Below, piece after piece: positions 1 to 21,363 of a DNA stretch of 64,000 bases (its first letter is position 1; each line of letters begins with the position of its first letter). The DNA comes from Dehalococcoidia bacterium. Lineage in GTDB: Bacteria > Chloroflexota > Dehalococcoidia > Lucifugimonadales > JADFKI01. The translations under genes and the position numbers were made by a program. The notes beneath the pieces were generated by a model. That model saw only the letters and a program-made list of their open reading frames with translations, ran no database searches and was not told the DNA's origin. The stretch lies in NCBI GenBank assembly GCA_965204855.1, contig OZ242018.1, positions 304,185-368,184 of the forward strand. Reading direction: 5' to 3'.

Positions 1-1
1 G

Positions 2-2138: not shown

Positions 2139-2162
2139 GTCCGGGGCAGATGAGGCAACACG

Positions 2163-3530: not shown

Positions 3531-5029
3531 CGGATGACCCCCATTGCGCCGTCGCCCGGGCAGTCGTCGCTCTTTCTCCCGTCTGGACAGACCGTATCGC
3601 GCCACTCGGCATCACGTGTGCCCGAAACCCTGGCAAAGTCCGCGCCCGTAAGGTCTGTCCGAACGAACTTCGCGTTCCTCACCTCCGAGCCGTTGAGAAA
3701 GGCGTCTTCAAGCTTCGCGTCGGTGAAGTCCGCGTTACGCAGGTCGGCATTTCGAATCTTTGCATCCTCCAGTCGCGCCCCGACGAACACCGATCGCTGC
3801 AGGTCGGCGCCGTCGAACAACACGTCCAGCAGGACGGCATCCGTGAATTCGGCCCGAACCAGCCTGGCTTGAGTGAAGTCGATACTTCTGAGCGTCATGC
3901 CGGCATAGATCGTCTCCCGCAGGTTCGCCTGGCTGAAGTCGGTCGTCTTGTCGAAGACGACTCGTGTCATGTTAGCTTCCTTCAGGTTGGCCTCACCCAA
4001 GTTGGCCCCGGTAAAGTCCGTATCGGTGAGGTTGGCGTCCTCGAAGTTCACTCGCCGGAGCGAAGCCCCGTTGAAATTAACCCGATAGAGCGTGGCTGAG
4101 ACAAAGGAAGCTCCATCTAGGACCGTGCCTTCGCCAAACCTGCTGCGGGACAGGTCCGTCCCATAGAAGCTAACATCGATCAGCAGAGCCTCAGCCGGCC
4201 AAGTCGTGTTGTGCATGATCGCCCTGTCGAAAGAGACCACGCGGGACAAGTCGGCGCTACTCAGATCCACGTTCGACAGGTTCACCTGGTCCAGGATAGC
4301 GCCCGATAGAGACGCCTCCTTAAGAATTGCGCCTTTCAGGTTCGCCTTTCTGAGGTCGGCGTTCGCCAAGTTTGCGCCGGTCAGGTCAAGCCTCCGTAAG
4401 TCTCGCCCTGAGAAGTCGCAGCCGACCAGCTGAGCGCCCGGCGCGGGAGTGCAGGGCGGAGGTGTCTTCGTGGGCGTCGGCGTGATGGTAGGCGTGGATG
4501 TAGCAGTGGCAGTTCCCGTCGCGGTTGCAGTGCCTGTTGCCGTTGGGGTAGGCGTAGCTGTCGGAGTCGCGGTAGGCGTTGCGGTGGATGTTCTGGTAGG
4601 TGTAGCCGTCCCTGTCGCCGTGGGCGTTCTGGTCGGAGTTGCAGTAAATGTCGCGGTTGCCGTCGCCGTGGGAGTCGCGGTGGGTGTGCTGGTGGGTGTC
4701 GGAGTTATGGTCGGGGTGTGGGTTCTGGTCGCCCAGATTATTCCGTAGGCCGTCGCCGTGGTGTGCGGAGTGAAAGTAGGCGAGGGGACTGGAGTTTCCG
4801 CTGGGGACGGCGTTGAGTGCTCCAGGACCGCCTCGTCGTCCGCGTCCGCCATTCCTTTCTCTTCGACTTGCACGGCCAACCCATTTGCCACAGATTCCTC
4901 GGATGCTACTCCACCGTCCGAACCTCCGAGGAACTGGCAGCCGAGCGAGGGCAGCAGGAGAAGGGCAATAAGCAGCCCCGCGCCAAGCAGTCCTGCCCGG
5001 ACTCCGGAGCTGGCAGGACCTGAAATCAC
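3527..5029 (-). CDS. Exported pentapeptide-repeat protein with Thr/Pro-rich linker
   Basis: Long run of A(D/N)LxX pentapeptides ([28 protein letters not shown]...). N-terminal hydrophobic segment [18 protein letters not shown]. The start was re-derived as GTG at 5029, with GGAGGAG 9 nt upstream and a GTGA overlap with the stop of the upstream ORF. The track start 5128 would overlap that ORF by about 100 nt. Confidence 0.8.
4449..4748 (-). repeat. Low-complexity (TPTA/TGTA)n coding repeat inside the pentapeptide-repeat gene
   Basis: Translated as [32 protein letters not shown]... on the minus strand. The mirror plus-strand ORF (VGVAVGV...) is an artefact. Confidence 0.8.
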
Positions 5030-5520
5030 TGCTGGTTCTCCTCCACTATCCTCGCCTGGCAGAAGCTGAATGCCATTCCAATGTACGCCTCGAAGCTGCC
5101 ATACTGTCCGGCCTCGAGCGCCTCCCACATCCTACGTTCCGACTCCGTGATTTCACGCTCGATAACCTCCTTGGGCAGGTTCGGATTGAGATAGGTTCGA
5201 GCCGTGCAGTCGGCCATCCAGCGGACTATCTCCAGTTCGTTCTCACTGGCATCTTTCCTAGCCAGCGTGTATTGAGCCACGGAACCCTGACTGTTTGTCG
5301 ACGAACCTCCACTTGCGCGGTCTTTTTTCGCTTGGGCGACGATATAGTCCTGAAAGCTCTTCATCTGCTCTTCCAGCGCCGCGATCCGCTCGCTGTCCGA
5401 GCGCCCATTTGCCGACGAACTCTCGTCATCGTCACCGCAGGCCGCGAGAACCAGAAGCGCGGCGATAAGCGCGGTGCCCAGATGCAGCTTAATCCCCGGC
5501 ATTAAGCGCAGCATCGTCAT
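5026..5520 (-). CDS. Lipoprotein
   Basis: Signal peptide with lipobox LVLAAC|GDDD. ATG at 5520 is preceded by GGAGGAG (4-nt spacer). The gene overlaps the rpoB 3' end by 32 nt. Confidence 0.7.
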
Positions 5521-8500
5521 ACGACTCCTCCGGCCGCGGAAGCGGCGCAGTTGCAATCTCCGGCGTGTCCCGAATCAGCTCGGGATTCAGCCCCAGGCTC
5601 CTGAGTTCGGACAGTAGCAGTTCAAAGCTGTCCGGCACTCCGGGCTTGATCTGTGTGCCCTTACTGAACCCGCTCCCGTCGTCTGCCATAATCGCCCTGA
5701 GCAATGCCTCCCGCCCGCCGACATCATCCGACTTCACAGTCATCATCTCCTGCAGCAGGTGCGCCGCGCTGTATGCCTCAAGCCCCCAGACCTCCATCTC
5801 TCCCAGCCGCTGACCGCCACCGACGGACTTGCCGCCCAGCGGTTGCTGGGTGATCATCGAGTACGTGCCAGTCGAGCGTGCGTGCATCTTGTCCTCGACC
5901 ATGTGTATGAGCTTGAGCATGTACTTGTAGCCAACCGTCACCGGTCTGTCGAAAGGCTCCCCCGTCCTCCCGTCTCGCAAGACCTGCTTGCCCATGATCG
6001 GAGCCGACAGGTTCTCTTCGCGATCAAGCCGCAGCGCTTCTTCGCGCAGTTCCTGATAAGAAGAGAAGCCCGTAGAGTCCAGTCCCTGTTGACGCATCCA
6101 GAGCTCCAGGCAGACACGCCCGCAGTAAGTACGATTCTCCGCGCCCTCACCGAAGAGCGCCTCGTAGTCGTAGCCCTGCGCCTCGGCCCAGTTCCTGACC
6201 CGATCCCAGTCCACCTTGTATACATCGTCCTCCGGCAACCGTTCAGTGGGTAAACCGCCTGCCTGCTCGACCAGCCAGGCCTGTGCAAGACACTGCTCTA
6301 TCTGCTCCCAGCGTGCCGAGTCAAACACCGGCGTCCTCGCGCGAAACCCTAGGCGATGCGCCGCCCAGCCCAGATGCACCTCCATCAACTGCCCGAGGTT
6401 CATTCGGGACGGCACTCCGAGCGGAGAGAGAATCACATCCACGGGCGTCCCGTCCGGAAGGAACGGCATGTCCTCCTGTGGTACGATAATCGACACGCAG
6501 CCCTTGTTCCCGTGACGACCGGACATCTTGTCTCCTGACCTCAGGTCCCTCGTTCCCGCCACCTCGACCTCCACTCGCGTGTGGCAACTCGGCGGCAGTC
6601 CACGCGCGGCCTCGCTGCCGTCTCCTCGACGAACGACCTTCACGCTCACCACCCGACCCTGCTGGCCCTTCGGTAGCAGTCGTGAGCCATCCTGGTAGCG
6701 CAGGTTATCCGACGTCTCACCAAGTACCTTAAAGAGCAGTTTCTCCTCCGGCGTCCGTTCCCTGTCCTGATGCTCGACGGGGACGGGCTTCGGCGTCGCC
6801 TTGCCTATAAGAATCTGTCCAGATCCGACGTATGCGCCCACGGGCGCCACTCCTTCTTCGTCCAGAAGCTGCCTGCGCCAGTCGGCGACGTCCGGAACAT
6901 CACGAGTTAAGATCTCCGGACCGAGTGGCGTGTCCATCGCGTCGAGCCTGTACTTCTTCAAAATGCGAGAGCGAAACTTGCCCTCGCGCACTACGCGCTC
7001 TGACACGATGATGGCGTCTTCGTAGTTGTATCCGCCCCAGCTCATATAGGAGACGAGGACACGCTGACCCAGAGCGAGTTCGCCTTCGCTAGTGGCGGGG
7101 CCGTCCGCGATTGGCTGTCCGGCATCCACGCCCTGGAAGCGGTTGACGATAGGCCGCTGTCCTATCCAGGTGAAGGCGTTCGACCGAATAGCACTCTGCA
7201 GATCGTAGCGTTGCATTCCACCACCGTCGTCCGGCATCAACTCGATGCGGTCAGCGGAGGCGGACATCACAGTGCCGCTGTCTTCAGCTCTGATCTGATG
7301 GCCGCTGTCACGAGCCATGTCCACCTCCATTCCGGTGGCGACGAGAGCCGTCTGCGGATGAAGCAGAGGAACCGCCTGTCGCTGCATGTTGCAGCCCATC
7401 AGCGCGCGATTCGCGTCGTCATGCTCGAGGAACGGGATGAGCGCGGTGGAGGCGCTGACTATCTGGCGGGGCGTCAGGTCGATGCAATCGATACTCTCCC
7501 GGGGGACGAGGAGCCAATCCTCGCCCCGCCTTGCCGCTACCTGCTCTTCTACGAACTGCCCTAGTTCGTCCAGTTCAACGGTGCATTGAGCGATGGTCAG
7601 TCCAGCTTCTTCATATGCTGTGAGATAAACAACGTCCGCATCGTCGCCCGATACATAAGGACGCACAGCTACGCTGAATGCCGGAATCGCCGCGAGGCGT
7701 TTCACCAGTTCCGGCGTCGCAATGCTGCCCACTCTCGCCAGAAAGTCCGCACCGACTCTTACGTCCTGCCTCAGTTCACGACCGGCCAGCCTCTCGTCGT
7801 GGCTGGAGACCTCCTTCATCACCCGGCGCACCGGCGTGGTGAGAAGCCCGTGTCGGTCAATCTGTGCCGCTGTCGTCAGAGTTGACAGCAGCCCGATGTT
7901 CTGCCCCTCGGGTGTCTCGATCGGGCAGAGCTTGCCGTAGTGCGTGTGATGCACGTCCCTGGGGTCCACGCCCGCGTTCTGCCGGTTCAGTCCGCCGGGG
8001 CCTAGAGACGTCACACGCCGCTTGTGCGTCAGCTCGGCGAGCGGGTTTGTCTCGTCCACCAACTGGCAGAGCTTCGAGCCGTTGAAGAATCCGTCTAGGC
8101 GCTTAAGCAGGGGCGCAGTGTTCAGGAGGTCCGAGGGACGCTTTGGGCGACTTCGTCCCAGCTCCAGTCGCTGGTTAACTGCTCTGCCGACCTCGTACAA
8201 CCCGGTCTCGAACTCCGTCTGCACCAATTCGGCGGCGGTACGTACGCGCCTGTTTGCCAGATGGTCAATGTCGTCCGCCCCCGCGCTTCCCAGTGATACC
8301 TTTATTACGTGCCCGACGATTCGCACCAGGTCGTCGCAAGTCAGCAGCAGGCTTGTCTCGCTGGTGCCGAAACGCCGGTTGAGCATGTGTCGGCCGACCG
8401 CCGACAGGCTGTAATGCTGCGGGCTGAAGAAGAGACGCTCCCTGCGGCGCTCGGCGCTCTCGCGGCTCGGAGGCGCACCCGGGGCGACTTCGGCATAGAC

Positions 8501-9217
8501 TTGAAAGAGCGCCTCGTCACGGCTCCGGCAATCGCCTGCCGCGAGGGTGTTGCGGATGAATCGCCTGCTCGGATCGGTGTCCGCATTGCTGAAGGCATCG
8601 AGCAGTTCGTCGTCGGTCTCCAGGCCGAACAATCGCAGGACTGTCAGCGCGCTCAGGCTGCTTCCATTGTTTAGCCTGACGCGCAGTTGGTCGCGCTCGT
8701 TCGTCTCGAAGCCGATCCAGGAACCGCGAGCGGGAATGATGCGTCCTCTTCCCAGCCGATGCCCGGAAACAGGCTCGCGGTCGAAGCCGAACCAGACGCC
8801 GGGGGCGCGTACTATCTGGTGAATGACGACTCGCCGCACTCCATTGATGATGAAGCTACCTGAAAGATCCATCACGGGAACCCGGCACAGGAGGAGGCGC
8901 TGCTCGATTATCTCGCTGCTGTTTGTGTTCGTCAGTGTCGCTCTGACCGTCACCTGTGCGTCGTATGTCAGGCCTTCTGCGACACACTCTGAGGGGCTGC
9001 GCTCACGCGGTTCCAGCTCGGGCTGGTCGAGGCTCAGCGAGAAGCGGCCGGACGCATCGCTTATGTCGGCCATTTCGCTGAGGGACTGGGCGATGCCGCT
9101 CTCCAGAAACTGGCGGTACGAGTCCAACCGGAGCGACAGTAGTCCTGGCTGTGCCGTTGGCGCTTTCAGCCTGCCGTACCGACGTACCGGTAGGGTTGAT
9201 GTGATTTTGGGCGTCAT
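5489..9217 (-). CDS. rpoB: DNA-directed RNA polymerase beta subunit
   Basis: 1242 aa with the hallmark blocks FIINGVRRVVIHQ, NPLAELTHKRRVTSLGPGGL, IPFLEHDDANRALMGCNMQRQAVPL, GRHGNKGCVS and GEMEVWGLEAYSAAHLLQEMMTVKSDD. Confidence 0.95.
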   Translation of the reverse strand: MTPKITSTLPVRRYGRLKAPTAQPGLLSLRLDSYRQFLESGIAQSLSEMADISDASGRFSLSLDQPELEPRERSPSECVAEGLTYDAQVTVRATLTNTNSSEIIEQRLLLCRVPVMDLSGSFIINGVRRVVIHQIVRAPGVWFGFDREPVSGHRLGRGRIIPARGSWIGFETNERDQLRVRLNNGSSLSALTVLRLFGLETDDELLDAFSNADTDPSRRFIRNTLAAGDCRSRDEALFQVYAEVAPGAPPSRESAERRRERLFFSPQHYSLSAVGRHMLNRRFGTSETSLLLTCDDLVRIVGHVIKVSLGSAGADDIDHLANRRVRTAAELVQTEFETGLYEVGRAVNQRLELGRSRPKRPSDLLNTAPLLKRLDGFFNGSKLCQLVDETNPLAELTHKRRVTSLGPGGLNRQNAGVDPRDVHHTHYGKLCPIETPEGQNIGLLSTLTTAAQIDRHGLLTTPVRRVMKEVSSHDERLAGRELRQDVRVGADFLARVGSIATPELVKRLAAIPAFSVAVRPYVSGDDADVVYLTAYEEAGLTIAQCTVELDELGQFVEEQVAARRGEDWLLVPRESIDCIDLTPRQIVSASTALIPFLEHDDANRALMGCNMQRQAVPLLHPQTALVATGMEVDMARDSGHQIRAEDSGTVMSASADRIELMPDDGGGMQRYDLQSAIRSNAFTWIGQRPIVNRFQGVDAGQPIADGPATSEGELALGQRVLVSYMSWGGYNYEDAIIVSERVVREGKFRSRILKKYRLDAMDTPLGPEILTRDVPDVADWRRQLLDEEGVAPVGAYVGSGQILIGKATPKPVPVEHQDRERTPEEKLLFKVLGETSDNLRYQDGSRLLPKGQQGRVVSVKVVRRGDGSEAARGLPPSCHTRVEVEVAGTRDLRSGDKMSGRHGNKGCVSIIVPQEDMPFLPDGTPVDVILSPLGVPSRMNLGQLMEVHLGWAAHRLGFRARTPVFDSARWEQIEQCLAQAWLVEQAGGLPTERLPEDDVYKVDWDRVRNWAEAQGYDYEALFGEGAENRTYCGRVCLELWMRQQGLDSTGFSSYQELREEALRLDREENLSAPIMGKQVLRDGRTGEPFDRPVTVGYKYMLKLIHMVEDKMHARSTGTYSMITQQPLGGKSVGGGQRLGEMEVWGLEAYSAAHLLQEMMTVKSDDVGGREALLRAIMADDGSGFSKGTQIKPGVPDSFELLLSELRSLGLNPELIRDTPEIATAPLPRPEESYDDAALNAGD

Positions 9218-9431
9218 AATTCAACGATACGAGCGCCCGTTATGCAGTTTCAACGGCTGGTGTCGGGTTGTATGTTCTGATTGCCCGCTTTGGAAAGTAG
9301 TAGATGAAGGCAAGACGGCTCGAAGTCCTGCTTTGTGCAACTGAAAGTGCGACGCCCCCTGCCAGCGTTCGATCTCGACGGCGCTACACCCGTCGCTTCC
9401 GAGTAAGCCAGGTCCCCGGAATAAGGAAAGG

Positions 9432-9887
9432 TCAATCCTTGTCTGACCCAATCCTCAAGCCAGGTATAATCATGAAGATACAGATCACGAACCCGAATAA
9501 CCCGACACCTACAAATGCCTGCACCCATAAAGGTGCTTCAACGGAAGCCTGTCCTATAATTTCTTGGCTAGTGTAGGCGGGAATCAAGGCGACACAAAAG
9601 AAAACCATACTCCACACCATCAACTTGGTCTTTCTCCCCGATCTCACCTTGATGTTGTACCACTCATCATTGATGGCCTGAATGAACCCTCTGTTACGTA
9701 GCTTGCCCAAATTCAGGCATAATAACCATGCTCCGAAGATGAAAAAGCAAGGAATCCCGACCACAACGGCAATTTCGCTCAGCAATGCCAATGAGGCTGG
9801 CAGCCCTTCCGGGCTCCACACTTGATAAAGTCCTCCACCAATCAACGCCCACTTCCCGAAGGCAAACACCCTTCTCAAGACTTCCAC
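9432..9887 (-). CDS. Integral membrane protein (about 4 TM)
   Basis: Four hydrophobic stretches (WALIGGGLY, IAVVVGIPCFFIFGAWLL, MVWSMVFFCVALIPA, FVGVGLFGFVICIFMIIPG). Lies in the lower-GC islet. Confidence 0.55.
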   Translation of the reverse strand: MEVLRRVFAFGKWALIGGGLYQVWSPEGLPASLALLSEIAVVVGIPCFFIFGAWLLCLNLGKLRNRGFIQAINDEWYNIKVRSGRKTKLMVWSMVFFCVALIPAYTSQEIIGQASVEAPLWVQAFVGVGLFGFVICIFMIIPGLRIGSDKD

Positions 9888-10289
9888 TATGTCCTCCCGT
9901 TAAGGTATTGCAATGTTTCCATCCAATTCATTCGCTGCGTCTCTCTGTACGACTTGGACTCCGGCGTAACTCGACGTACGGTACCCGATTCGCAATAAGC
10001 GTTCTAAACTCGGTAGGAGTTTTGCAATCGCTTTGGAGTTGGCATTATCACAGCAATATTGTCCCTTCCCCGCTGATGGAGGAAGGTTCGGCCGGGGTGT
10101 TGCAATTGACACCAGCCCCGAATCATCTCGAAGACATGGAGTCCTGGATCCTCAACAACCCGCACTTCCAACAGTCCGCAAAAGTTCGCGGCACACTGAA
10201 TGCCCCAAGTCCGAGACCGTCGGCTGCAGATTCCTGGCACAGTATCGTAAACTTCCAAATGCTCGTCCTTCCAAAGGGCATCTGAATTC

Positions 10290-10793
10290 ATGGGAGAGAC
10301 TATGAACAGGCAGAAAATTTCGACCATAATTGCTTCGTCTATTGATACGTTTATGCTCATTATTGCAGGTGTCTGCTTCCTTAGTGTCCTTTACGGAGCT
10401 TTCTTGTGGATAGTCCTGTATCTCCAGGATCCCAACCGCCCTTACATTGGTGGTTCCCTGTTCACGATAGCTCAGGTGGTAACTATATTTGGAGGATTCA
10501 GCTTCGCTGCGACATTTTCCGAGCGTGTAAACTGTGACACTCGCCACTTGTTGCGATATGTGGGCGCTTTGCACCTGATTTCTGCATTGGGATTCGTGCT
10601 TCTAGGGCTGCTGTTCCCGCTGGTAACAGTTGACGCAATATGGAGCCATTCTGCAGGATATGTCCTGCAGGGGATTGTTGCCCTAGCATTTTGCATGGCG
10701 TCAGGGGGCTTCGCCATTGGCACATTTCTGTGGGTGGGTCGTATTCACAAAATAGCGGACTCGCAGAGTGCCTGTTGTACAGAAACAGACTAA
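10290..10793 (+). CDS. Integral membrane protein (4 TM)
   Basis: Four clear hydrophobic helices. Same strand as the nucleotidyltransferase gene and 133 bp upstream of it. Confidence 0.55.
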   Translation: MGETMNRQKISTIIASSIDTFMLIIAGVCFLSVLYGAFLWIVLYLQDPNRPYIGGSLFTIAQVVTIFGGFSFAATFSERVNCDTRHLLRYVGALHLISALGFVLLGLLFPLVTVDAIWSHSAGYVLQGIVALAFCMASGGFAIGTFLWVGRIHKIADSQSACCTETD

Positions 10794-10926
10794 CGACTCG
10801 AAGCAGATTCTGGTAAGAAGCCCTCTCTTTCGGCCCGAACGCGTTATTCAATCTCTAGTTGGGAACGAACTGCGACAACTCTGCTTCAGGCAGCATGTAT
10901 TCAAGATTGAGGTGTGAATAATAGAA

Positions 10927-11697
10927 GTGACGAACGGAAACAGATATATTGATGAAATCGTGCTGACTTATCGGCCTGTTACCGGGTCCGGCACACCTGT
11001 CTATGAGGTTGGCCAAAGGCTACGAGGAATGATCCAGAGGTGGTACTCCGAGCGTTTGGAGAGAGTCCATAACTCCGGCTCCTTCGCCAAGGGAACATCG
11101 ATACGAGGTGGAGTCGACCTGGACCTATTCATCTCATTGAAACCCGGAACCGGGAAGTCGCTCCGCGCCATCTATGAAGGACTGTACCGCTATGCCGACG
11201 GCGAAGGACTGAATCCCAGACGCCAGAATGTATCGATTGGCGTTGAGATGGACACCGTGAAGGTCGACCTCGTTCCAGCTCGCAAGCACAAGGGGAGCAA
11301 CTTCCACAGCCTATACCGCAGTCGGCAACAGACGTGGACGAAGACAAACGTCGACAGGCACATTGATCTGATACGAAGGTCAGGAAAGTCCCGTACAATC
11401 CGCGCCGCCAAGATATGGCGTCGGAATAGGGGCCTTCGCTTTCCTTCCTTTTACCTTGAGCTCGCAGTGTTGAGAGCATTGCGCAACGAATCTCCACAGG
11501 GCTCCGCAGCAGAACTAACGAAAGTATTGGAATTCCTCGCTGCTGGAGTCGTTGAAGTGGAGTTCGTTGACCCGGCAAACGATTTGAACGTAATCTCCGA
11601 TGATCTGACATTGGCTCAGAAGCGGGATATTGCAAACCAGGCACGGGCCTCACTGCGAATCATCGGACTTGGCTCGTGGGAACGAGTTATATGGTGA
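10927..11697 (+). CDS. Pol-beta-fold nucleotidyltransferase, cGAS/OAS/SMODS-like
   Basis: GSFAKGTSIRGGVDLDLF (G-S...DxD) plus the downstream VKVDLVPA (third acidic residue), then the helical FPSFYLELAVLRAL segment. GTG start with GAGGTG upstream. Confidence 0.65.
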   Translation: MTNGNRYIDEIVLTYRPVTGSGTPVYEVGQRLRGMIQRWYSERLERVHNSGSFAKGTSIRGGVDLDLFISLKPGTGKSLRAIYEGLYRYADGEGLNPRRQNVSIGVEMDTVKVDLVPARKHKGSNFHSLYRSRQQTWTKTNVDRHIDLIRRSGKSRTIRAAKIWRRNRGLRFPSFYLELAVLRALRNESPQGSAAELTKVLEFLAAGVVEVEFVDPANDLNVISDDLTLAQKRDIANQARASLRIIGLGSWERVIW

Positions 11698-11707
11698 ATT
11701 TGGAAAT

Positions 11708-12460
11708 ATGACTGCCAAAATCAATCGTATCGACCTCAACGACCTGTTTGAAAGCGCGCAGCAGAAGATGGTTGCTGAGTTGAGCAGCATCCGTCTTACA
11801 GTTGATCACGGAAGTACACTCGGTGACGAGACCGAGTTCGCTTGGGTCAGATTCCTCAACAGAATGCTGCCGAATCGCTATCAGGCCAGTGACGGCTTCG
11901 TGGTGGACGCCGACGGACGACGCAGCGATCAGATTGATGCCATAGTGTTCGACAGACAATACTCGCCTCCCCTGTTTCAGTTTGAAAAGGTGCAATATGT
12001 GCCCGCGGAGGCTGTCTATGCGGTATTCGAGGTGAAGCAGAGAATAGACGCCAGAAACTTGAAAGCGGCGTCAGCGAAGGCCGCTTCAGTAAGGAGACTG
12101 AGGCGAACCACGGCGCGCATCCCCACTGCGGATGGCGTGCTTGAACCGAAAGTGCCTCACCGAATCATCGCCGGCGTTCTCGCGTTGAGTATTGCGGATC
12201 CGAAGACATTCGAGAGAATTGTAAGGCGTGAGATGGCGCACGCTTCCGAAGACGCACGACTGGACCTGGGTTGCGCCATAAGAGACGGTTCGTTCACTGT
12301 AGATTACGAGGCAGCCAACGCTCCCGCAGTCAGCATCAGCCCCGGACAGTCCTCACTGATTACATTCTTCTTCCGGTTCCAAACCTTGCTGCAGGCTCTT
12401 GGCACCGTGCCTGCCATTGATTATTCGGAGTACGCTAAGGCGGCTATCGACCGCGTGTAA
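11708..12460 (+). CDS. PD-(D/E)xK (restriction-endonuclease-fold) protein, DUF6602-like
   Basis: SDQIDAIVFD ... VYAVFEVKQ matches the D...(D/E)xK signature. ATG at 11708 lies 10 bp after the NTase TGA. The track start 11630 would overlap the NTase. Confidence 0.55.
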   Translation: MTAKINRIDLNDLFESAQQKMVAELSSIRLTVDHGSTLGDETEFAWVRFLNRMLPNRYQASDGFVVDADGRRSDQIDAIVFDRQYSPPLFQFEKVQYVPAEAVYAVFEVKQRIDARNLKAASAKAASVRRLRRTTARIPTADGVLEPKVPHRIIAGVLALSIADPKTFERIVRREMAHASEDARLDLGCAIRDGSFTVDYEAANAPAVSISPGQSSLITFFFRFQTLLQALGTVPAIDYSEYAKAAIDRV

Positions 12461-13068
12461 CCACCATGGACGTGAGATTACTCATTGAAGAATTCTTCGG
12501 GCATTCATGAGCATCAGCAATTTCGCAAATTTCTTGCCGAGATCAAAAGCAACTTGGGGGAACAGTTAGCGCTCCAACTAGCGAAAGCCTATCTACCGCA
12601 GCAGCATCTAGCCGGATGCTTGTCTACGCAAGCATCCGCGATAATGCTAGGACATCTCACTCCCATCCCTTCCGACTCGCCAGACACACTGCATTGCGGC
12701 TTGCACGTCTCGCTCGGCAACACGACCCCGAGTTTAGCGACGTTAATCGGTCTTGTAGGCGTATCCTATCGCACCGTCCGCCGATTCACCAAGTTTCTCC
12801 TGTGGCTTCGGCTTGGCTAGTTTTAGCCGGTGCTTGAACTTGGCGATCTATATCCAATACTCTCACCATAAGCGATTCGACGCGCGCACGGTGGCAACCA
12901 TATTCTAGGCGGATTCAGGTCCGTCAGCTTGCTCAAGCTCAGGACCGTCGATACCGTACGTCCTCATGTGTGTGAACTGCCCGCGAAACCTACACTCAAT
13001 GCTATCGCCATCCACCGCGCCAACACTCGTGATGAGAGCCATAACGGCCCTGCTTTGTCGCAGATGGA

Positions 13069-13374
13069 TTAATCTCTCCCGCTACGCACAATGTCAGATA
13101 AGCCGCTGCCAGCCGTGAAAGCCACACGCTTGCCCGCAGGAACCTCGACAAGCTGACCGGCGTTGGGACCGGCAATGGGCCTGATTTTTCGAGGCGACGT
13201 GTCACGCACCTCAAATGTGCCGAAGCCGGTCAGGGTCACCCGGTCATTCTCCCTGAGGGCCTGTCCAATGCTGTTAAGCACGGAGTTCACCGACTGGGCC
13301 GCCTGCGCCTTCGGGCAACCGAGGCTTTTCGCTACCATGTCTACCAGTTGTCCCTTGTGTATTCTGTCCGCCAA
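13069..13374 (-). CDS. hup: HU/IHF-family DNA-binding protein
   Basis: LTGFGTFEVRD...GKRVAFTAG core of HU. The start was re-derived as TTG at 13374 with GGAGG 7 nt upstream. The track N-terminal extension has no HU homology. Confidence 0.85.
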   Translation of the reverse strand: MADRIHKGQLVDMVAKSLGCPKAQAAQSVNSVLNSIGQALRENDRVTLTGFGTFEVRDTSPRKIRPIAGPNAGQLVEVPAGKRVAFTAGSGLSDIVRSGRD

Positions 13375-13743
13375 TTTGAAACCTCCTCTGTTCAATCCGT
13401 TCTTGTAGTGGTTGATACCAGCAGGTTGCAATCGACTGGCGTTCCAGCTCATTGTTCGACGGTAGCTGCAGATCTCTATAACGCAGAAAAGACCGTTTTC
13501 TCGCGAACTTCGGTCGACTCAACGTCTCCCCAGCCGACTCATACGATAGCAAGTTCGTGGGGCCTCAGGAGTGCTGAGCCACTTCTGCCTGTGCTCCCGT
13601 AGATCGACAGTTGCCCTGACCGCTTGCACGACAGAGAATCTCGCACGGCTATATATGCTACACCAGGCAATGCACCTGAAACGCAAAAAAGTCCTTCTTT
13701 CCGTCAACTGATCCTGACTGGGACAATGAATGGTCAACGACAT

Positions 13744-14319
13744 TTACTCCGACCACTGCAGACAGATGAGGGCGCTGCATCCTGTCCTTACGAACTCAGC
13801 AAGCAGAAACTCTCGAAGCGCGTCGTCCATATCGCGGTCATCTTCGACAGGAGTCTTATCGACCGCCCACATCCTTACGGCGCTGGCTATCTGCTCGCCC
13901 GGAAGAGGCTCGAACTCCTCCTCTAGCTCATACGCCAGCCTGCTGAAATCGGACGGCGGTATCGCGCTCAGAACATTCTTCAAGTTAAGCAGGACGTTGC
14001 GCCAGATTATGTAGTATATGGTCTCGTCAGGGTCATGCCACTGCAGCATCCAGAGGTTCCGGCGCGAACTCCCATCCATAAGAAGACGCAGCCTGTCCGC
14101 CAGCCTGTCATCGCTTGTCAAGAACTCAAGCATCGAGTATTCGAGCGACCTGCACCGCACGAAGACGTAGGTTCCCGGCACGGTTCCGCTTTCAAACCTG
14201 GCCTCCAGCGCGTCCAAGACCGATTCGGCGGAGCGACGCGGCGCCAGTTCCTCTACGTTCTTCAGTTCGCAGTCCTCGATCAGGTAGTATTCCGTATCCA
14301 TCATTTTCCTCTTCCTCAT
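13744..14319 (-). CDS. Hypothetical protein
   Basis: 191-aa ORF with balanced, acidic composition, co-directional with dnaN. No motif recognised. Confidence 0.5.
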   Translation of the reverse strand: MRKRKMMDTEYYLIEDCELKNVEELAPRRSAESVLDALEARFESGTVPGTYVFVRCRSLEYSMLEFLTSDDRLADRLRLLMDGSSRRNLWMLQWHDPDETIYYIIWRNVLLNLKNVLSAIPPSDFSRLAYELEEEFEPLPGEQIASAVRMWAVDKTPVEDDRDMDDALREFLLAEFVRTGCSALICLQWSE

Positions 14320-14596
14320 TGCAGACGCTTATAGATCAGGGCCGACGCCGACTGAGCCAACTCGCTCACTCAGCCCTCAGAACTGTTGAGTGAAGCCTTC
14401 CCGCCCTTTTCCAAGTCGCAGCGACGCCTTGGCGCTTCTCCGACTTTTCTCCTGATTCCCTTACCCCTTGAGGCGGGAAGGCCTGAGTCTGAGTTTGTCG
14501 AGGGAATGGGAGGGCGAATCGTTTGCTCTCCGCCCTCCTGACGATGATTCCGCAAGTTTACCCAATGTCCGATTTTACCGGAAAGGGTCTCTTCGC

Positions 14597-15736
14597 TCAG
14601 TCTGTCCAGTCATGTACGAACATCGGCATCACGACATGCACGTAGCCGTTGTCCTCCGCAGGCTTCAGCACGCCGGGGTTTGTCGCCGATGACACTTCCA
14701 TCGCAATGTCCTCGCCCAGCACGTCAAGAACATCGGTGAGGTACTTGTAGTTGAAGGCGATCTTCGCCTCGTCGCCCTCCACGGCGGCGTTCAGTTGCCC
14801 CTCGTTGTCTCCAACCTCTTGAGAGCGAGACGCCACCGTCAGGCGTCCAGGCGTCTCTTCTTCCCCTGCCGCCACTCTCAGCCGGATGATGCCGCTGTCG
14901 TCCCGGGCGAAGATCGCGGCCGTGCGCGTGGCCCGCAGGAACTCCTGCGAGTTTAGCACGGCGCGCGTTGCGTATCCTTTAGGGATCAGTCTCTCGTAAT
15001 TCGGGAAGTTCCCGGCGATCAGCGACGAGACTATTTCCACGTCGCCCACGCGGAAGAGAGCCTGGTTTCCGGTGGGGGTCACCGTGAACTCCACGTCCTG
15101 CTCCTGGCTGCCCAGCAGGCGCGCCATCTCGTTCAGCACACGCGCCGGCACGAGGATGTCGATGTCCTTCTCTGAAGCCTCCGCCAGCTTCGCTCCGTAC
15201 ACGGCCAGCCTGAAACCGTCAGACGCCACGAACCTGGCCTCGTCGCCTCTTATCTCGACCTTCACTCCCGTCAGCGCGGTCCGCGCCTCATCGGTCGCCG
15301 CGGCAAACGCCACGCGCCTGATAGCCTCCCGCAGAGCGTCCGGCTGCATCCGCAGCGCTATCCCATCCTCGACGGTCGGGACCGGCGGGAAGTCGTCGGC
15401 ATCCGTGCCGCTGACATTCGATTCGAAGCTCACGCACTTGACGTTAACGCCGACTGGCTTCGCGGTCGACTCTATGCTGATCGTCTCCTCCGGCAGCGAG
15501 CTCACGAAGTCCCCGAGCAACCGCGCGGGAACCGTGATCGCCCCCTCCTCTTCGACGTTCGCTCCAATCCAGGTCGTCATCGACAGGCTCAGGTCGGTAG
15601 CCGAGAGCTTGAGCATCGACTGCTCGGCGCACAGAAGCACGTTCTGCGTGATGGGCAGCGTCGAAGGCGACGAGACGGCCCTTCCGACGACCGACAGCGC
15701 GCGGGCAAGATTCTCCTGTAGGCAAGTAAACTTCAT
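14597..15736 (-). CDS. dnaN: DNA polymerase III beta sliding clamp
   Basis: MKFTCLQENLARAL...LPITQNVLL N-terminus and three-domain length. ATG at 15736 with AGGAG 7 nt upstream. Confidence 0.9.
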   Translation of the reverse strand: MKFTCLQENLARALSVVGRAVSSPSTLPITQNVLLCAEQSMLKLSATDLSLSMTTWIGANVEEEGAITVPARLLGDFVSSLPEETISIESTAKPVGVNVKCVSFESNVSGTDADDFPPVPTVEDGIALRMQPDALREAIRRVAFAAATDEARTALTGVKVEIRGDEARFVASDGFRLAVYGAKLAEASEKDIDILVPARVLNEMARLLGSQEQDVEFTVTPTGNQALFRVGDVEIVSSLIAGNFPNYERLIPKGYATRAVLNSQEFLRATRTAAIFARDDSGIIRLRVAAGEEETPGRLTVASRSQEVGDNEGQLNAAVEGDEAKIAFNYKYLTDVLDVLGEDIAMEVSSATNPGVLKPAEDNGYVHVVMPMFVHDWTD

Positions 15737-15920
15737 TGTAATTCTCCTGAGTGCATTTCGGGACCTGTCATAGACCATTCCGCTGCCATAACTAGCATGC
15801 TGCGGTTCAGCGCGCAGGTGACGATTACGTCCCGTTCATATATATTCGCGCGAAGGAGGCCCCGCTCGCATAAGCGAGACTTCCATTTTCACATCGACGG
15901 CGAGCTGCATCGCTTTGCCG

Positions 15921-16412
15921 TCAGGACATCTCAGTGTCCTCGGACACTTCCGCTTCCTCATTCAGGCATTCCAGAAACTCGGCAATCTCCCGCCCGTCGC
16001 CCCTCATCTCCTCGACAAGACGCTCGCCGAAGTCGTATGGCAGCACCGCGTACGAAACTGCCGGGTAGAACGACCCGAACGGCGCCGCTGCTCCTCCTAT
16101 CCCGCTCTCTGCGGCAGACCCTCTCACATCAAAGCCCAGCCGGCAGTCAAGCGCCGCCCAGGCATCCTCGTTCCGCTCTTCGCAGTCGCCGTCCACGTCG
16201 TGCCAGTCGAAAGGCGTGGAGAACATTATCCCATCATCCTCGACGGACGCCGTGAACTCGAACTCCGCTCCATAGTGCGGCTCCTTTACCTTCAACCTAA
16301 CTTCCAGTATCCTGCCGTCCTTGTCTAGTGCCACTGTCCTGTCCTCGACCTGAACCGGCTCGTTGCAGGCGAGGCAGACAACATTCGCACCTTCGAGTCG
16401 GCTGCGTAACAC
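15921..16412 (-). CDS. Hypothetical acidic protein (start uncertain)
   Basis: The track ORF runs to 16484, but its first 11 codons cover the terminator hairpin at 16451-16480. In-frame GTGs downstream, including 16412, are possible starts. Confidence 0.4.
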   Translation of the reverse strand: MLRSRLEGANVVCLACNEPVQVEDRTVALDKDGRILEVRLKVKEPHYGAEFEFTASVEDDGIMFSTPFDWHDVDGDCEERNEDAWAALDCRLGFDVRGSAAESGIGGAAAPFGSFYPAVSYAVLPYDFGERLVEEMRGDGREIAEFLECLNEEAEVSEDTEMS

Positions 16413-16450
16413 CTTTCGGTAGCCATGACACGTTCCCTCATATCTAAGTG

Positions 16451-16480
16451 AAAAGCCCCCACCAGTTTCCCGGCAGGGGC
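16451..16480 (-). terminator. Intrinsic terminator
   Basis: On the minus strand: GCCCCTGCC-loop-GGTGGGGGC followed by TTTT. Confidence 0.65.
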
Positions 16481-16510
16481 ACATCTGCAGTTGTTTTCAC
16501 TGGAAATCTC

Positions 16511-17110
16511 CTAGAGCTTCCCGACCCATCCCACGTACCAACCGCCATGTTCATCCGACTGCACCGTCAGAAACCTGAACCACGCGTTGTCGGACAGCTT
16601 CACGTCCATAATCAGCGTATCCCGCTTTCCGGCAGCCAGCGCCAGCTCGTAATCCCCTACGACGCTCATTGCGCCGCCAATCACTCGAGCTCTCCATGCA
16701 GACCTCATCAGGTCGTTCTGCGCCAGTTCCCTGACCGCATGTCTGAGCTGCGGGCCGGTCATCGGCGCTCCATACGTCCCGCCGCCGTCACGCTCGGTCC
16801 ACACCGCAGAGCAGGTCATGCACCGCCAGATGCCGTCGAAGCGGCCACGCAGCTGACAGTCCCGCGAGCAGTCGATGTTTCTGGCACGGTATGCCCATAC
16901 CGCTTCGTAGAACTCCTCGCATTCCTCTTCGGTGGGGTTTCGGTAGCTCTCGCCATCGTTGTCGGAAACCGCCCATGTGTATTCAAGCGCAGCGTCCCTG
17001 ATACCGCCCACGAGCGCGGCGTCCATTCCGACGCGCTCCAGCACGAACTCGTCCAGCGTGCCGCAGGCGTCCGTGTCACCGTAGTTCCTGTATATGATCC
17101 TGTCTCCCAT
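16511..17110 (-). CDS. Hypothetical protein
   Basis: 199-aa ORF with protein-like composition. The overlapping 331-aa Arg-rich ORF in another frame was rejected. Confidence 0.5.
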   Translation of the reverse strand: MGDRIIYRNYGDTDACGTLDEFVLERVGMDAALVGGIRDAALEYTWAVSDNDGESYRNPTEEECEEFYEAVWAYRARNIDCSRDCQLRGRFDGIWRCMTCSAVWTERDGGGTYGAPMTGPQLRHAVRELAQNDLMRSAWRARVIGGAMSVVGDYELALAAGKRDTLIMDVKLSDNAWFRFLTVQSDEHGGWYVGWVGKL

Positions 17111-17189
17111 GAACCAATCCTCTTGTTCATCAAGTAAGAAGAGGGCGACAGCACGAGCCGCCGCCCTCCGAATCTTCCGGTGCAGCAGG

Positions 17190-18680
17190 TTATCTGCCCG
17201 AATCGGCGCCTTTCGCCAGCTTCAGGGCAATCGTCGCGCCGGCGGACGCGCAGGAGTCTCCCCACGAATACCCGTGGGAGAACTCGCCGTCCGTAAGCGC
17301 ATGACCCAGCTCGTGTATCACGAGCGCCAGCTGCTCCCTGTCGCGTCCCTCGAAGAACTCGTCGCCCAGACGAGCCAGGTTGAACCTCATCGTGGGCCGC
17401 GCCGAGCGGGATGTGCAGTCCGCAAGCGCGAATGAGCGCGGGTTGTGGATGAATACCGGGTTCACCGTAACGCCGACATAGCGGCCAAGTTCCTTCACCC
17501 ACTTCGCAAAGGCCATCTTCGCCTGATCGTCCGACACGTCGACCACCTTGAGGTGCGGGTCCCGCTCTCCGCCGAGAGTCTTCCCGAAGCGCGCGCTTGC
17601 CGATTCCATTCCGCCCAGCTCGCGCAGGTTGGAACGCTCCTCCCTGCTCATCGTGCGTGGATGAATCACTTGGTAGCCCTTGTCCATGGCCTCCGAGTTG
17701 GCGTTTCTGTCGGATGACCACAGCACCGCCTTCCTGCCGTAACGCCGTTCCACGGTCGCGCGCGCAGCGTCTTCGCTGATCCTGCCGTCCTCGACGGCGG
17801 TGCGCACCCACGTCTCGCCGAACTCCTCGCGCTCCATTTGCCCGTGCATGCAGTTCAGCGCCTCGGCGTAGATGTCCTGAAGGTAGGATTCACTCACGGT
17901 GTCACGGTTGGGCGGCATGGGCACCTTCTGCTGCACGTCCACGTCGTAGGGAACCTCAATCGGCTGTATCGGGATGCCCATCTCGTAAATCCATCCCCTG
18001 CCCTCCGGATCGCTGACGCCGGTGATGTGAAGCTCTGTCTTGCGTCTCGTCGGGCGCATCGGCTCCCCGGGCGCGCCCTGAATGAGCGTAGAGAGAATTG
18101 CCGTATGCACCTTCAGCGCCTCTCGACGCTCCACTTCAATGTCGTTGACGGTGTACTTGCACCCCTCAGGCGGACGGAACAGCATCAGCCGCTCGACGAG
18201 CCTCTCGGCGTCCGCCTTCGTCCACGGCATCATCGCCTCCACGACCGTGCCGCGCTTGCGGTCGTTCCGCCGGACCTCGCGGCCGCCCTCCGGCGGAAAG
18301 CTCACCGTCCAGCCCACTGTCTGCACCACCGCATATGCGGCGACCGACAGGACCTCCTTCTCGCCCAGGTTGAACCGCCCTCGCTTTTCAGGATCCGCCC
18401 GCTTCTCGGTCTCTCCCATAAGGGTGTAGGCATCGTCGATGTTCGCGAAGCCTTCTCCATCATCCTCCACCGACACCAGCACCCTGTTTCTCGACTGGTG
18501 CTGCACTTTCACCCTGCACATCGTGGCATCTTCGTCCCATACGTTCTGAATTAGTTCCTTCACCAGGCTCTCCGGAGTCCTGCCCTTGTGCAGCGCCCGC
18601 ATACCCTCGGCGCTGACGCTGAAGCGCTCCTTCGCGCGCCTGACCTTCCTGTTTCTCATATCTCTAACCTTTCCTGACAT
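17190..18680 (-). CDS. GHKL-type ATPase-like protein with C-terminal HExxH motif
   Basis: The N-terminal ELIQNVWDEDA ... VEDDGEGF resembles the Bergerat-fold N and G1 boxes. The C-terminus has LVIHELGHAL (HExxH). Confidence 0.55.
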   Translation of the reverse strand: MSGKVRDMRNRKVRRAKERFSVSAEGMRALHKGRTPESLVKELIQNVWDEDATMCRVKVQHQSRNRVLVSVEDDGEGFANIDDAYTLMGETEKRADPEKRGRFNLGEKEVLSVAAYAVVQTVGWTVSFPPEGGREVRRNDRKRGTVVEAMMPWTKADAERLVERLMLFRPPEGCKYTVNDIEVERREALKVHTAILSTLIQGAPGEPMRPTRRKTELHITGVSDPEGRGWIYEMGIPIQPIEVPYDVDVQQKVPMPPNRDTVSESYLQDIYAEALNCMHGQMEREEFGETWVRTAVEDGRISEDAARATVERRYGRKAVLWSSDRNANSEAMDKGYQVIHPRTMSREERSNLRELGGMESASARFGKTLGGERDPHLKVVDVSDDQAKMAFAKWVKELGRYVGVTVNPVFIHNPRSFALADCTSRSARPTMRFNLARLGDEFFEGRDREQLALVIHELGHALTDGEFSHGYSWGDSCASAGATIALKLAKGADSGR

Positions 18681-18762
18681 TCCACAAGATCAGCCCCGCA
18701 GCCGCTCGCTGCGGGGCTTTGTTTTCTACGGCTCGCTTTACTCAGACAGCCTGCACCGGCCG

Positions 18763-19149
18763 TCAGAACATTCTTGCCTGTCCCACAGCCCTATTGCGAG
18801 TTGGGACCCTCAGCCCGAGGCAGTCATCGCATCGCTCTAGGAACAGGGGCATCGTAGGGCCGCCCCATCCACTGTTGAGCTTCCGAGTCCCGCCGCAGAA
18901 GGCGCACGCGCCGGTGCGCTCCTTTATTCCTATGTCCTCGCAGTCCCCGCTGTGGCACACGGCGGCGCCTCTCGTGCGCTCCCGCTTGCCGCACCCGATA
19001 CACAGGTTGGCGTCGCGCCACGCTTCAAGTATCTTCACCTGTTCGTAGAACCAGTGCCAGTCGATGCTTCCGTCCGGCATCAGGCGCGGCTCGCAGTCGA
19101 GCGCATCCGGCGTCGGCACGCCAGCCGGCCTTCCCGTAGCGGCTGACAC
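18763..19149 (-). CDS. Cys-rich hypothetical protein (zinc-binding candidate)
   Basis: CIGCG, CHSGDC, CAFCGG and CDDC clusters. Tightly packed in the operon. Confidence 0.45.
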   Translation of the reverse strand: MSAATGRPAGVPTPDALDCEPRLMPDGSIDWHWFYEQVKILEAWRDANLCIGCGKRERTRGAAVCHSGDCEDIGIKERTGACAFCGGTRKLNSGWGGPTMPLFLERCDDCLGLRVPTRNRAVGQARMF

Positions 19150-19346
19150 TATCTTCTACTCCCGCAAGCGCAGTCGCAGCGAGTGCCGGGGACTTCGATC
19201 CTGTCGCAGATGTGGTCGGCGATGTCGCCGCCCATCTCCACCAGGAACATCCCCACCTCTTCGCGAGTCGCATCCTGGGCTATCATCCCAAGGTCCTCCT
19301 GAAACGCATCGATGCACGCTCCGCAGATTTCTGTCGTTCCGATCAT
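19149..19346 (-). CDS. Small Cys-containing hypothetical protein
   Basis: 65 aa, starts 5 nt after the ligA stop. Contains CGAC and CDCAC motifs. Confidence 0.35.
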   Translation of the reverse strand: MIGTTEICGACIDAFQEDLGMIAQDATREEVGMFLVEMGGDIADHICDRIEVPGTRCDCACGSRR

Positions 19347-19350
19347 CTCT

Positions 19351-21336: not shown

Positions 21337-21363
21337 ATTCTTTCTCCTGTTTCCATAAACACG

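Follow-up and report, generated by a model that had tools for sequence, protein, structure and literature searches.

Does the stretch of lower GC content between rpoB and the HU gene in this Dehalococcoidia genome encode a nucleotide-signalling defence system, and, if so, which of its genes belong to that system? A first-pass annotation of the window (the whole 64,000-nucleotide stretch of DNA that was analysed) had proposed a cassette of three genes encoding a 4-TM protein, a short cGAS/OAS-like nucleotidyltransferase, and a PD-(D/E)xK nuclease, acting together as an abortive-infection module of the CBASS type. The open reading frames, motifs, and spacings that it listed were all found in their places (Table 1), and so was the compositional islet: the genes TM151, 4-TM, cyclase, and NucC have GC contents of 0.485, 0.486, 0.536, and 0.550, respectively (a range of 0.485 to 0.550), whereas the window as a whole has 0.608 and rpoB 0.62. 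The signalling module itself was also recovered as a cGAS/DncV-like nucleotidyltransferase and a PD-(D/E)xK nuclease, both with full-length PADLOC matches. The cassette, however, was reduced to the cyclase-nuclease pair, as the 4-TM gene had no homologue in 88 cyclase loci. We consider it highly probable that positions 10927 to 12460 hold an anti-phage operon of CBASS type I that is intact and consists of two genes.

Table 1. Features of the region between rpoB and the HU gene (window positions)
Feature	Position	Strand	Remarks
rpoB	5489-9217	-	
4-TM protein gene	10290-10793	+	167 aa; 133 bp upstream of cyclase
Lineage-variable cargo segment	10758-12972	.	2.2 kb between two conserved blocks
Intergenic leader of operon	10794-10926	+	GC 0.466; read from sequence
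Cyclase (CD-NTase, CBASS oligonucleotide cyclase)	10927-11697	+	GTG start, 256 aa
NucC effector endonuclease	11708-12460	+	ATG start, 250 aa
HU gene	13069-13452	-	

The nucleotidyltransferase

The cyclase contains the motifs GSFAKGTS (from residue 51), DLDLF (from residue 64, with D64 and D66), and VKVDLVPA (from residue 111, with D114), which together provide the catalytic set G51-S52, D64, D66, and D114. Since G51, D64, D66, and D114 were unchanged in all 42 of the family members compared, these motifs are not due to chance. The profile searches suggested by the first-pass annotation gave a consistent picture. The PADLOC Cyclase model PDLC00803 matched the protein with an E value of 6.5e-75 over 253 of 253 model positions, and the score for the Pfam SMODS family exceeded the gathering threshold, whereas the Pfam NTP_transf_2 match was weak (18.4 bits) and under the cut-off of 21. 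The NCBIfam equivalog models for CBASS cyclases scored 64 and 42 bits, below their curated cut-off of 200, and the cyclase therefore represents a divergent branch.

The AF2 model of the cyclase (pLDDT, 93.8) has the two lobes of the CD-NTase fold, the C-lobe being helical (helices across residues 142 to 255). Structure prediction and Foldseek comparison had also been proposed as a check, and the best PDB matches were EcCdnC (E value, 1.9e-13; TMq, 0.79) and PaCdnD, and the best fold matches overall were to CdnC, CdnD, CdnB, CdnG, and CdnE. The top 50 fold matches comprised CD-NTases, DZF proteins, and CCA-adding enzymes, and MNT/KNTase proteins were absent from them. The protein thus combines the Pol-beta catalytic set with a cGAS/DncV-like two-lobe fold and is neither an MNT/KNTase-type nor an antibiotic nucleotidyltransferase, the outcome that would have spoken against signalling. 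Identity to the solved relatives is only ~20%, and the family profile ranked EcCdnC (1.5e-13) ahead of BcCdnD (9SA4; 6.6e-12) and PaCdnD (5.9e-11). These comparisons show that the cyclase is a compact (~255-aa) CD-NTase and that, among characterised enzymes, it is most closely related to the cyclic tri-AMP synthases of clade C/D.

The protein had been described as shorter than typical CD-NTases. This is true with respect to the type III cyclases, which are ~65 aa longer, but the length is the norm of its own family, as 253 to 259 aa is usual among its more than 1,500 proteins. The compact family is found from bacteria to Bathyarchaeia and CPR lineages.

The effector nuclease

The second gene starts 10 bp past the cyclase stop codon. 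A longer, TTG-initiated reading from position 11630 exists, but the homologues align from the ATG at 11708. The protein matched the PADLOC models Effector "Endonuclease (NucC)" (E value, 8.2e-82) and NucC (2.6e-54) as well as Pfam DUF6602 (4.8e-28), and five solved NucC structures (7ZGV, 6UXF, 6P7O, 6P7P, and 6Q1H) matched residues 9 to 247 with E values of 1.7e-42 to 3.1e-41. Identity to E. coli NucC is 39%. NucC proteins have the fold of type II restriction endonucleases and the active-site motif IDx30E[A/V]K (D73, E104, and K106 in E. coli), and the residue roles used here are taken from the same source (bioRxiv 10.1101/694703). In the window protein, the segments SDQIDAIVFD (at residue 73) and AVFEVKQ (at residue 105) supply I76-D77 and E108-V109-K110; D77 and E108 are separated by 30 residues. 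Among 74 partner NucC proteins, the aspartate was present in 74, the glutamate in 72, and the lysine in 73, and because these residues are invariant or nearly so, a chance occurrence of the motifs can be dismissed.

The nuclease had been thought to lack a recognisable ligand sensor, a view that did not hold, since the residues of the cA3 pocket are conserved: R57, Y85, and T233-V234 correspond to R53, Y81, and T226/V227 of the E. coli protein, and the arginine and the tyrosine are present in all 74 partner proteins and the threonine in 72. Ligand sensing in NucC relies on a pocket formed by the trimer itself, and a SAVED domain would therefore not be expected. In the gate loop, which is present in the window protein, T140 and L145 take the places of the latch residues H136 and Y141 of E. 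coli NucC. At these positions, the histidine occurs in 37 and the tyrosine in 31 of the 74 partner proteins, and Serratia NucC (7ZGV) has asparagine and alanine. The positions thus vary within accepted NucC proteins, and the missing latch residues do not exclude membership; we regard the latch as particular to the NucC proteins of E. coli and P. aeruginosa and not as a hallmark of the family. The replacement may alter the kinetics of ligand gating. Full-length homology, the IDx30E[A/V]K motif, and the cAAA-pocket residues show that the second gene encodes NucC, a DNase that has the restriction-endonuclease fold and carries an allosteric cyclic tri-AMP pocket of its own.

Gene pairing and CBASS type

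Whether the two genes are conserved together elsewhere had been posed as a further check. The cyclase gene is located immediately upstream of a NucC gene in ~70 of 80 reference-genome loci, so the pair is syntenic in other genomes, and the window keeps the 10-bp distance that family members typically show. The cyclase is thus accompanied by an adjacent, co-conserved Cap effector. The exceptions have a SAVED-nuclease, a TIR-SAVED protein, or a 1-TM effector, and these partners show the effector swapping typical of CBASS. The divergence of the cyclases correlated with that of the NucC proteins over 73 loci (r = 0.97), but this value was driven by close relatives (r was only 0.25 at <50% identity), and we therefore do not count it as independent evidence.

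De novo clustering of the flanking ORFs in 85 loci returned the cyclase and NucC as the only recurrent families around the cyclase, and no third recurrent family emerged. The other large clusters consisted of shadow ORFs over the two genes or of lineage-local AbiE and R-M neighbours. Two ORFs located 3' of NucC (239 aa in L001 and 274 aa in L002) were considered as a conserved third gene, but they are mutually unrelated and absent from the window. Likewise, orf111 (12485 to 12820), considered as a regulator, gave no Pfam match and had a homologue in none of the loci. No HORMA, AAA/TRIP13, JAB, or E2 genes were found in eight independent related contexts, counted as such because L003 and L004 repeat core genes of L002. 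In one of these contexts, L007, a ThiF/E1-like gene lies ~900 bp upstream. No match to the ancillary CBASS genes (Cap2/Cap3, HORMA/TRIP13, and Cap9-12) was obtained among the window neighbours with PADLOC, Pfam, or NCBIfam.

These surveys show that no HORMA/TRIP13, Cap2/Cap3, or other accessory genes belong to the system. As a HORMA/TRIP13-like or other partner is nowhere recurrent, the operon, which has no ancillary genes, is of type I. The nearest relatives of its cyclase and effector are type III components, but type III systems encode HORMA and TRIP13/Pch2 genes with the cyclase. As neither the window flanks nor any of the related loci contain such genes, the operon is not filed as type III.

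Genomic setting

The operon is the sole intact content of a cargo segment with one conserved block on either side, rpoB-TM151-4TM to the left and HU-p191-dnaN-ligA to the right. Nucleotide homology to the relatives L090 and L089 extends until position 10757 and that to L093 begins at 12973, whereas homology to the closest CBASS relatives is limited to 10927 to 12451. No recognisable gene was found in 12461 to 12972. At the slot, there was no tRNA gene and no integrase nearby, and the repeats were only short and at chance level. The slot may be a defence hotspot specific to the lineage, with cargo exchanged in the absence of a visible integrase, tRNA, or repeat. Being sharply delimited to 2.2 kb, with a different cargo in each relative, it offers a clean, small case of defence-gene turnover beside core genes.

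Alternative explanations

The 4-TM protein could be a second, membrane effector of the CBASS system or its regulator, as the three-gene cassette implied. Its gene is on the same strand at a short distance upstream and of similarly low GC content, a Kyte-Doolittle scan indicated about four hydrophobic segments, and CBASS operons with 4-TM effectors exist, e.g., EcCdnD12-4TM (bioRxiv 10.1101/2023.05.21.541620). However, the protein matched no PADLOC, Pfam, or NCBIfam family, the CBASS transmembrane (4TM) effectors included; its own family consists of 11 proteins in all, none of them in the cyclase loci; and homology to the CBASS relatives starts only at the cyclase gene. Its homologues occur without CBASS: in L090 and L089, the gene likewise lies beside rpoB, but the cargo behind it is type I R-M or SIR2-STAND. 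A three-gene system is accordingly extremely unlikely, and the 4-TM gene belongs to the resident surroundings of rpoB and not to the CBASS system. Less probable still, to the point of being negligible, is a locus with no signalling function, i.e., an MNT/KNTase-type toxin-antitoxin pair, an antibiotic nucleotidyltransferase, or an orphan restriction endonuclease beside a nucleotidyltransferase. The weak NTP_transf_2 match and the type II restriction-endonuclease fold of NucC would fit such a locus, whereas the full-length matches to CBASS-specific models, the CD-NTase fold with its helical C-lobe, the strict pairing of the cyclase with NucC or other Cap effectors, and the absence of a methyltransferase partner all argue for CBASS.

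Both genes could also belong to a genuine CBASS operon that is now a decaying or silent relic. Consensus scans of positions 9200 to 13500 gave promoter and terminator counts no higher than those in shuffled sequences, the sigma-70 consensus had no match in the leader, and ~510 bp of apparently non-coding DNA follow downstream. On the other hand, the consensus is not calibrated for the host phylum, both ORFs are full length with respect to their homologues, all catalytic and ligand-binding residues are intact, and the family-typical spacing is retained, which makes decay very unlikely. The leader presumably holds the operon promoter, and a Shine-Dalgarno-like GAGGTG is located at 10909 to 10914, 12 nt before the GTG. 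It is somewhat easier to imagine, but still unlikely, that an active cyclase produces cAAG, a 2'-5'-linked trinucleotide, or a dinucleotide instead of 3'3'3'-cAAA and that NucC is tuned to that signal. The low identity of the cyclase to its solved relatives leaves room for such a product, as do the replaced latch residues, the weak activation of E. coli and V. metoecus NucC by cAA and cAAG (bioRxiv 10.1101/694703), and the partnership of same-family cyclases with SAVED and TM effectors. Yet hardly any partner NucC protein deviates at the adenine-stacking tyrosine or at the phosphate-binding arginine and threonine of the three-fold pocket. The XGSX motif of the cyclase is SGSF, and 40 of the 42 family members have either SGSF or SGSY; SGSY, TGSY, and SGSL have been reported for cA3 makers, compared to QGSI for cAAG makers (PMC13424991). 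Moreover, all three of the nearest solved cyclases (EcCdnC, BcCdnD, and PaCdnD) are cA3 synthases. Judged from these relatives, the motif, and the NucC pocket, the product is most likely cyclic tri-AMP.

Proposed mode of action

By analogy with the characterised family, phage infection would activate the cyclase of the two-gene operon, which would then produce 3'3'3'-cAAA from ATP. Two NucC trimers would pair into a hexamer in which the active sites (D77, E108, and K110) are juxtaposed, and the hexamer would cut DNA non-specifically into pieces of ~50 bp. The infected cell would be expected to die ahead of phage release, i.e., by abortive infection.

The locus is an ordinary type I CBASS with NucC and adds a further example to a defence system that is already well described. 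Tools such as PADLOC would call a type I CBASS-NucC automatically, here in an uncultured Chloroflexota-like genome, and the value of the finding is modest: the compact, HORMA-independent cyclase family is large, and a specialist would not be surprised. A more specific idea, which we put forward tentatively and regard as rather doubtful, is that the 253-aa cyclase family is a stripped-down cA3-making CD-NTase, derived from or sister to the HORMA-/DNA-dependent clade C/D enzymes, that lost its HORMA partner and part of the HORMA-binding C-lobe. If this were true, infection would be sensed by a non-HORMA route, such as a phage protein, a nucleic-acid cue, or metabolite control, e.g., inhibition by ATP, and the family would offer a very small scaffold for studying how a stand-alone CD-NTase is switched on.

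Comparison with known systems

The type III CBASS systems of E. coli MS115-1 and P. aeruginosa ATCC27853 consist of CdnC/CdnD, HORMA, TRIP13/Pch2, and NucC (Ye et al. 2020, Lau et al. 2020). They share with the window operon the effector, including its catalytic and cA3-pocket residues, and the expected second messenger, cAAA; among solved proteins, their cyclases come closest to that of the window in both sequence and fold. They differ in the HORMA and TRIP13 genes, which the window and the related loci lack, and in their longer cyclases; in the window protein, the loops are trimmed and the C-lobe, the lobe bound by HORMA, is shorter. As HORMA is absent and the lobe that it binds is shortened, activation through a HORMA closure motif is impossible here.

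The type III CRISPR nucleases of Vibrio metoecus (6UXF) and Serratia (7ZGV) belong to the NucC family as well (E values, 1.7e-42 and 2.7e-42, respectively), and the same cA3-triggered trimer-to-hexamer DNase mechanism is predicted for the window protein by analogy. Their signal comes from Cas10, whereas here the adjacent CD-NTase would supply it, and the window contains no CRISPR-like array as an alternative source of cA3. In the type II BcCdnD-Cap4 system of B. cereus, the cyclase is the second-closest solved relative at the profile level and has SGSY where the window protein has SGSF; the product of BcCdnD is 3'3'3'-cA3, a molecule that activates NucC in vitro as well (PMC13424991). That system, however, has Cap2/Cap3 conjugation accessories, the SAVED-nuclease Cap4 as the effector, and a cyclase of 340 aa.

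The operon had been suggested to be an undescribed variant, but both of its proteins matched dedicated PADLOC CBASS models over their full lengths, and a type I operon of the same layout, XpCdnC03-NucC, has already been tested against phages and restricts coliphages (bioRxiv 10.1101/2023.05.21.541620; Richmond-Buccola et al., Cell Host Microbe 2024). Both operons consist of two genes, a clade-C-type CD-NTase gene and a NucC gene, with no accessories, the comparison being one of architecture. The host of XpCdnC03-NucC is gammaproteobacterial, whereas the operon described here resides in Chloroflexota (Dehalococcoidia/SAR202-like).

Gene content of the region

The three ORFs proposed in the first-pass annotation as a CBASS-like cassette, encoding a 4-TM protein, a nucleotidyltransferase (NTase), and a nuclease, were all found as described, together with their motifs, lower GC content, and rpoB and HU flanks. 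The NTase contains GSFAKGTS from residue 51, D64-L-D66, and, 48 residues on, VKVD114LVPA, and the nuclease contains SDQIDAIVFD at residue 73 and AVFEVKQ at residue 105. The GC content is 0.49 in the two membrane-protein genes, 0.54 to 0.55 in the NTase and nuclease genes, 0.61 in the window, and 0.62 in rpoB.

Features of the cassette region and of the wider window
Feature	Coordinates	Strand	Remarks
ParA-like	1189-1872
IstB/DnaC-like AAA	2163-3530
Pentapeptide-repeat gene	3527-5128		Downstream of rpoB, as in relative L089
rpoB	5489-9217	-	Flank of cassette region
4-TM ORF	10290-10793	+	167 aa
NTase (cyclase) ORF	10927-11697	+	256 aa, GTG start
Nuclease (NucC) ORF	11708-12460	+	250 aa, ATG 10 bp past NTase stop
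HU	13069-13452	-	Flank of cassette region
MORC-like HATPase_c_3 gene	17190-18680
DUF6094 methyltransferase-helicase	24381-28526		1381 aa
ParB-like protein	28615-30486		623 aa
Surface-protein-like giant ORF	48452-53077		LRR/fn3/cadherin, 1541 aa
Second surface-protein-like giant ORF	53581-62595		3004 aa, 348-bp repeat at 61394-62058

HU, dnaN, and LigA are also encoded in the surroundings of rpoB (1-5488 and 9218-30486), and this gene mix, with the ParA-like, IstB/DnaC-like, MORC-like, DUF6094, and ParB-like genes, resembles that of large mobile elements. rpoB is not followed by rpoC, and a scan of large ORFs of the 64-kb window other than the 3,004-aa ORF detected no polymerase gene of rpoC size. 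In the 1541-aa ORF, 12.7 copies of a 72-bp unit in tandem (49746-50653) make up the LRR region.

Identity of the cyclase and the nuclease

The NTase matched the PADLOC CBASS cyclase model PDLC00803 (E value, 6.5e-75; positions 2 to 253 of 253 aligned) and, more weakly, 18 further PADLOC CBASS cyclase models, and it passed the Pfam SMODS threshold. It had been noted as shorter than typical CD-NTases, but the usual length among the 1,557 detectable homologues is 253 to 259 aa, so this is a family trait. Residues G51, K55, T57, D64, D66, and D114 were invariant in an alignment of 42 family members. The AlphaFold2 model is confident (pLDDT, 93.8; pTM, 0.88) and shows a beta-sheet in the N-lobe and only helices in the C-lobe. 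An MNT/KNTase-type enzyme, considered earlier as the alternative, was not among the top Foldseek matches in the PDB, which were headed by Escherichia coli MS115-1 CdnC (E value, 1.9e-13; TMq, 0.79) and Pseudomonas aeruginosa CdnD, with DZF/NF90 proteins, the CD-NTases CdnD02, CdnB, CdnG, and CdnE, and CCA-adding enzymes ranking lower; together with the helical C-lobe, this argues for a CD-NTase. A family profile search ranked E. coli CdnC (1.5e-13), Bacillus cereus CdnD (9SA4; 6.6e-12), and P. aeruginosa CdnD (5.9e-11), all three of which produce cyclic tri-AMP. The "XGSX" motif tracks the product: enzymes that make cA3 carry SGSY, TGSY, or SGSL, and those that make cAAG carry QGSI (PMC13424991). 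The motif is SGSF in the window cyclase and SGSF or SGSY in 40 of the 42 family members.

The nearest relatives of the cyclase are found in Dehalococcoidia/SAR202 MAGs, and the family is spread over many phyla, Bathyarchaeia and CPR bacteria among them. The cyclase-NucC pair was also seen in MAGs of Bathyarchaeia (loci L022 and L043), Gracilibacteria (L074), and Berkelbacteria (L081). Such an archaeal and CPR host range, as assigned from MAGs, appears unusually wide for the short pair.

The nuclease is NucC, as shown by matches to the PADLOC CBASS effector model "Endonuclease (NucC)" (8.2e-82), the PADLOC NucC model (2.6e-54), and Pfam DUF6602 (4.8e-28). It also matched five solved NucC proteins almost end to end (E value, ~1e-42) and is 39% identical to E. 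coli NucC. With residue roles taken from Lau et al. (bioRxiv 10.1101/694703), catalytic I72-D73 and E104-A-K106 of E. coli NucC correspond to I76-D77 and E108-V-K110, and the cAAA contacts R53, Y81, and T226/V227 correspond to R57, Y85, and T233/V234. Across the 74 NucC partners of the cyclase family, these residues show no or almost no variation. The sole difference among the mapped residues is the gate-loop latch, H136/Y141 in E. coli NucC and T140/L145 here, whose positions vary across the family and read N/A in Serratia NucC. The nuclease had been thought to show no recognizable ligand sensor; however, NucC senses its ligand in a pocket built by its own trimer, so a SAVED or CARF domain is not expected, and the contact residues are present.

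A conserved two-gene unit

In all eight metagenomic contexts with cyclase homologues (47% to 85% identical), a DUF6602/NucC gene follows within 5 to 10 bp; the neighbors differ throughout (type I R-M, Hachiman-like HamA plus helicase, AbiE, TIR, and metabolic genes). A scan in which each species was represented by a single genome yielded 267 related loci; of the 80 retrieved, ~70 have NucC directly 3' of the cyclase. This co-conservation, with the full CBASS-model matches of both proteins, upholds the proposed CBASS-type module. When the flanking ORFs were all clustered de novo, two families alone recurred widely, the cyclase at 85 loci and NucC at 76, and there was no recurrent HORMA/TRIP13-like, E1/E2/JAB-like, or other partner. 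Nucleotide homology to the nearest CBASS relatives (78% to 82%) is confined to 10927-12451; the conserved unit is thus exactly the cyclase and NucC genes. NucC-less loci have other Cap effectors, namely, a SAVED-PD-DExK nuclease (L035), TIR-SAVED (L062), or a 1-TM effector (L048 and L057), a replacement that is the modular exchange typical of CBASS.

In a Gemmatimonadaceae MAG (L030:2987-5184), the short cyclase is followed directly by a 473-aa second CD-NTase (PADLOC cyclase models; E value, 5e-64) in the effector's place, a tandem two-cyclase arrangement. In an 82%-identical relative (L007), a 395-aa ThiF/E1-like product is encoded at 3455-4642, ~900 bp before the cyclase, and its gene is preceded by two small ORFs. 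A divergent AbiEi/AbiEii toxin-antitoxin pair lies ~0.8 to 1.8 kb upstream of the cyclase in 11 to 12 Dehalococcoidia relatives (L001, L009, L011 to L013, and others), a hint that the two systems travel together as one island in these bacteria; the window lacks the AbiE pair.

The 4-TM gene and the variable slot

The 4-TM protein had no family match in Pfam, PADLOC, or NCBIfam. None of the 88 cyclase loci holds a homologue of it, and the full protein collection contains only 11. In relative L090, rpoB, a homologue of the adjacent membrane-protein gene TM151, and a 4-TM homologue are collinear with window positions 9290-10757 (78% to 87% nucleotide identity) and lie ahead of a pentapeptide gene and type I R-M genes. 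The cargo that comes after rpoB and the 4-TM homologue in L089 is a SIR2-STAND NTPase and transposases. The 4-TM gene, with such non-CBASS cargo beside it, is therefore a resident flank gene and not a cassette member as first assumed.

On the right, positions 12973-21347 (HU, the 191-aa gene p191, dnaN, the HATPase gene, and ligA) are 85% identical to relatives L093 and L092, in which the genes next to HU or the 191-aa gene are those of an SNF2 helicase and a DUF1156 methyltransferase, a DISARM-like cargo, or are YopA/DUF5677 genes. The comparison places the variable cargo at 10758-12972, with the CBASS pair as its only intact content. The ~510 bp from the NucC stop to the conserved right block (12461-12972) hold no recognizable gene; a 111-aa TTG ORF (12485-12820) had no Pfam match and was without homologues in the loci fetched, and the region may be left over from cargo that the slot once held. 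The slot showed no tRNA, integrase, or flanking repeats and, between the rpoB-TM151-4TM and HU-p191-dnaN-ligA blocks, seems to behave as a defense hotspot.

Proposed mechanism and comparison with known systems

Both enzymes are identifiable and intact, operonically coupled, and free of accessory genes. As in characterized relatives, infection would cause the cyclase to make 3'3'3'-cAAA, which would bind the NucC trimer pocket; two trimers would then form a hexamer, whose nonspecific DNA cutting would kill the infected cell. CdnC and CdnD, the nearest relatives, depend on a HORMA protein that binds the C-lobe in its closed form, with dsDNA as a further requirement of CdnC. The window cyclase family lacks a HORMA partner, its C-lobe is shorter, and it must thus be controlled by other means.

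Type I CBASS is defined as a CD-NTase and a Cap effector without ancillary genes, and the pair belongs to this type. The suggestion of an undescribed variant was not borne out, as this architecture already has a class name and a 2023 defense-system database has dedicated models for both proteins. The remaining interest lies in the neatly bounded slot between rpoB and HU, with its exchange of cargo, and in the activation of a minimal clade-C-like cyclase that works without HORMA. By description, the pair is like XpCdnC03-NucC, an experimentally tested type I operon of a clade-C cyclase and NucC and one of the systems for which restriction of coliphages has been demonstrated (bioRxiv 10.1101/2023.05.21.541620).
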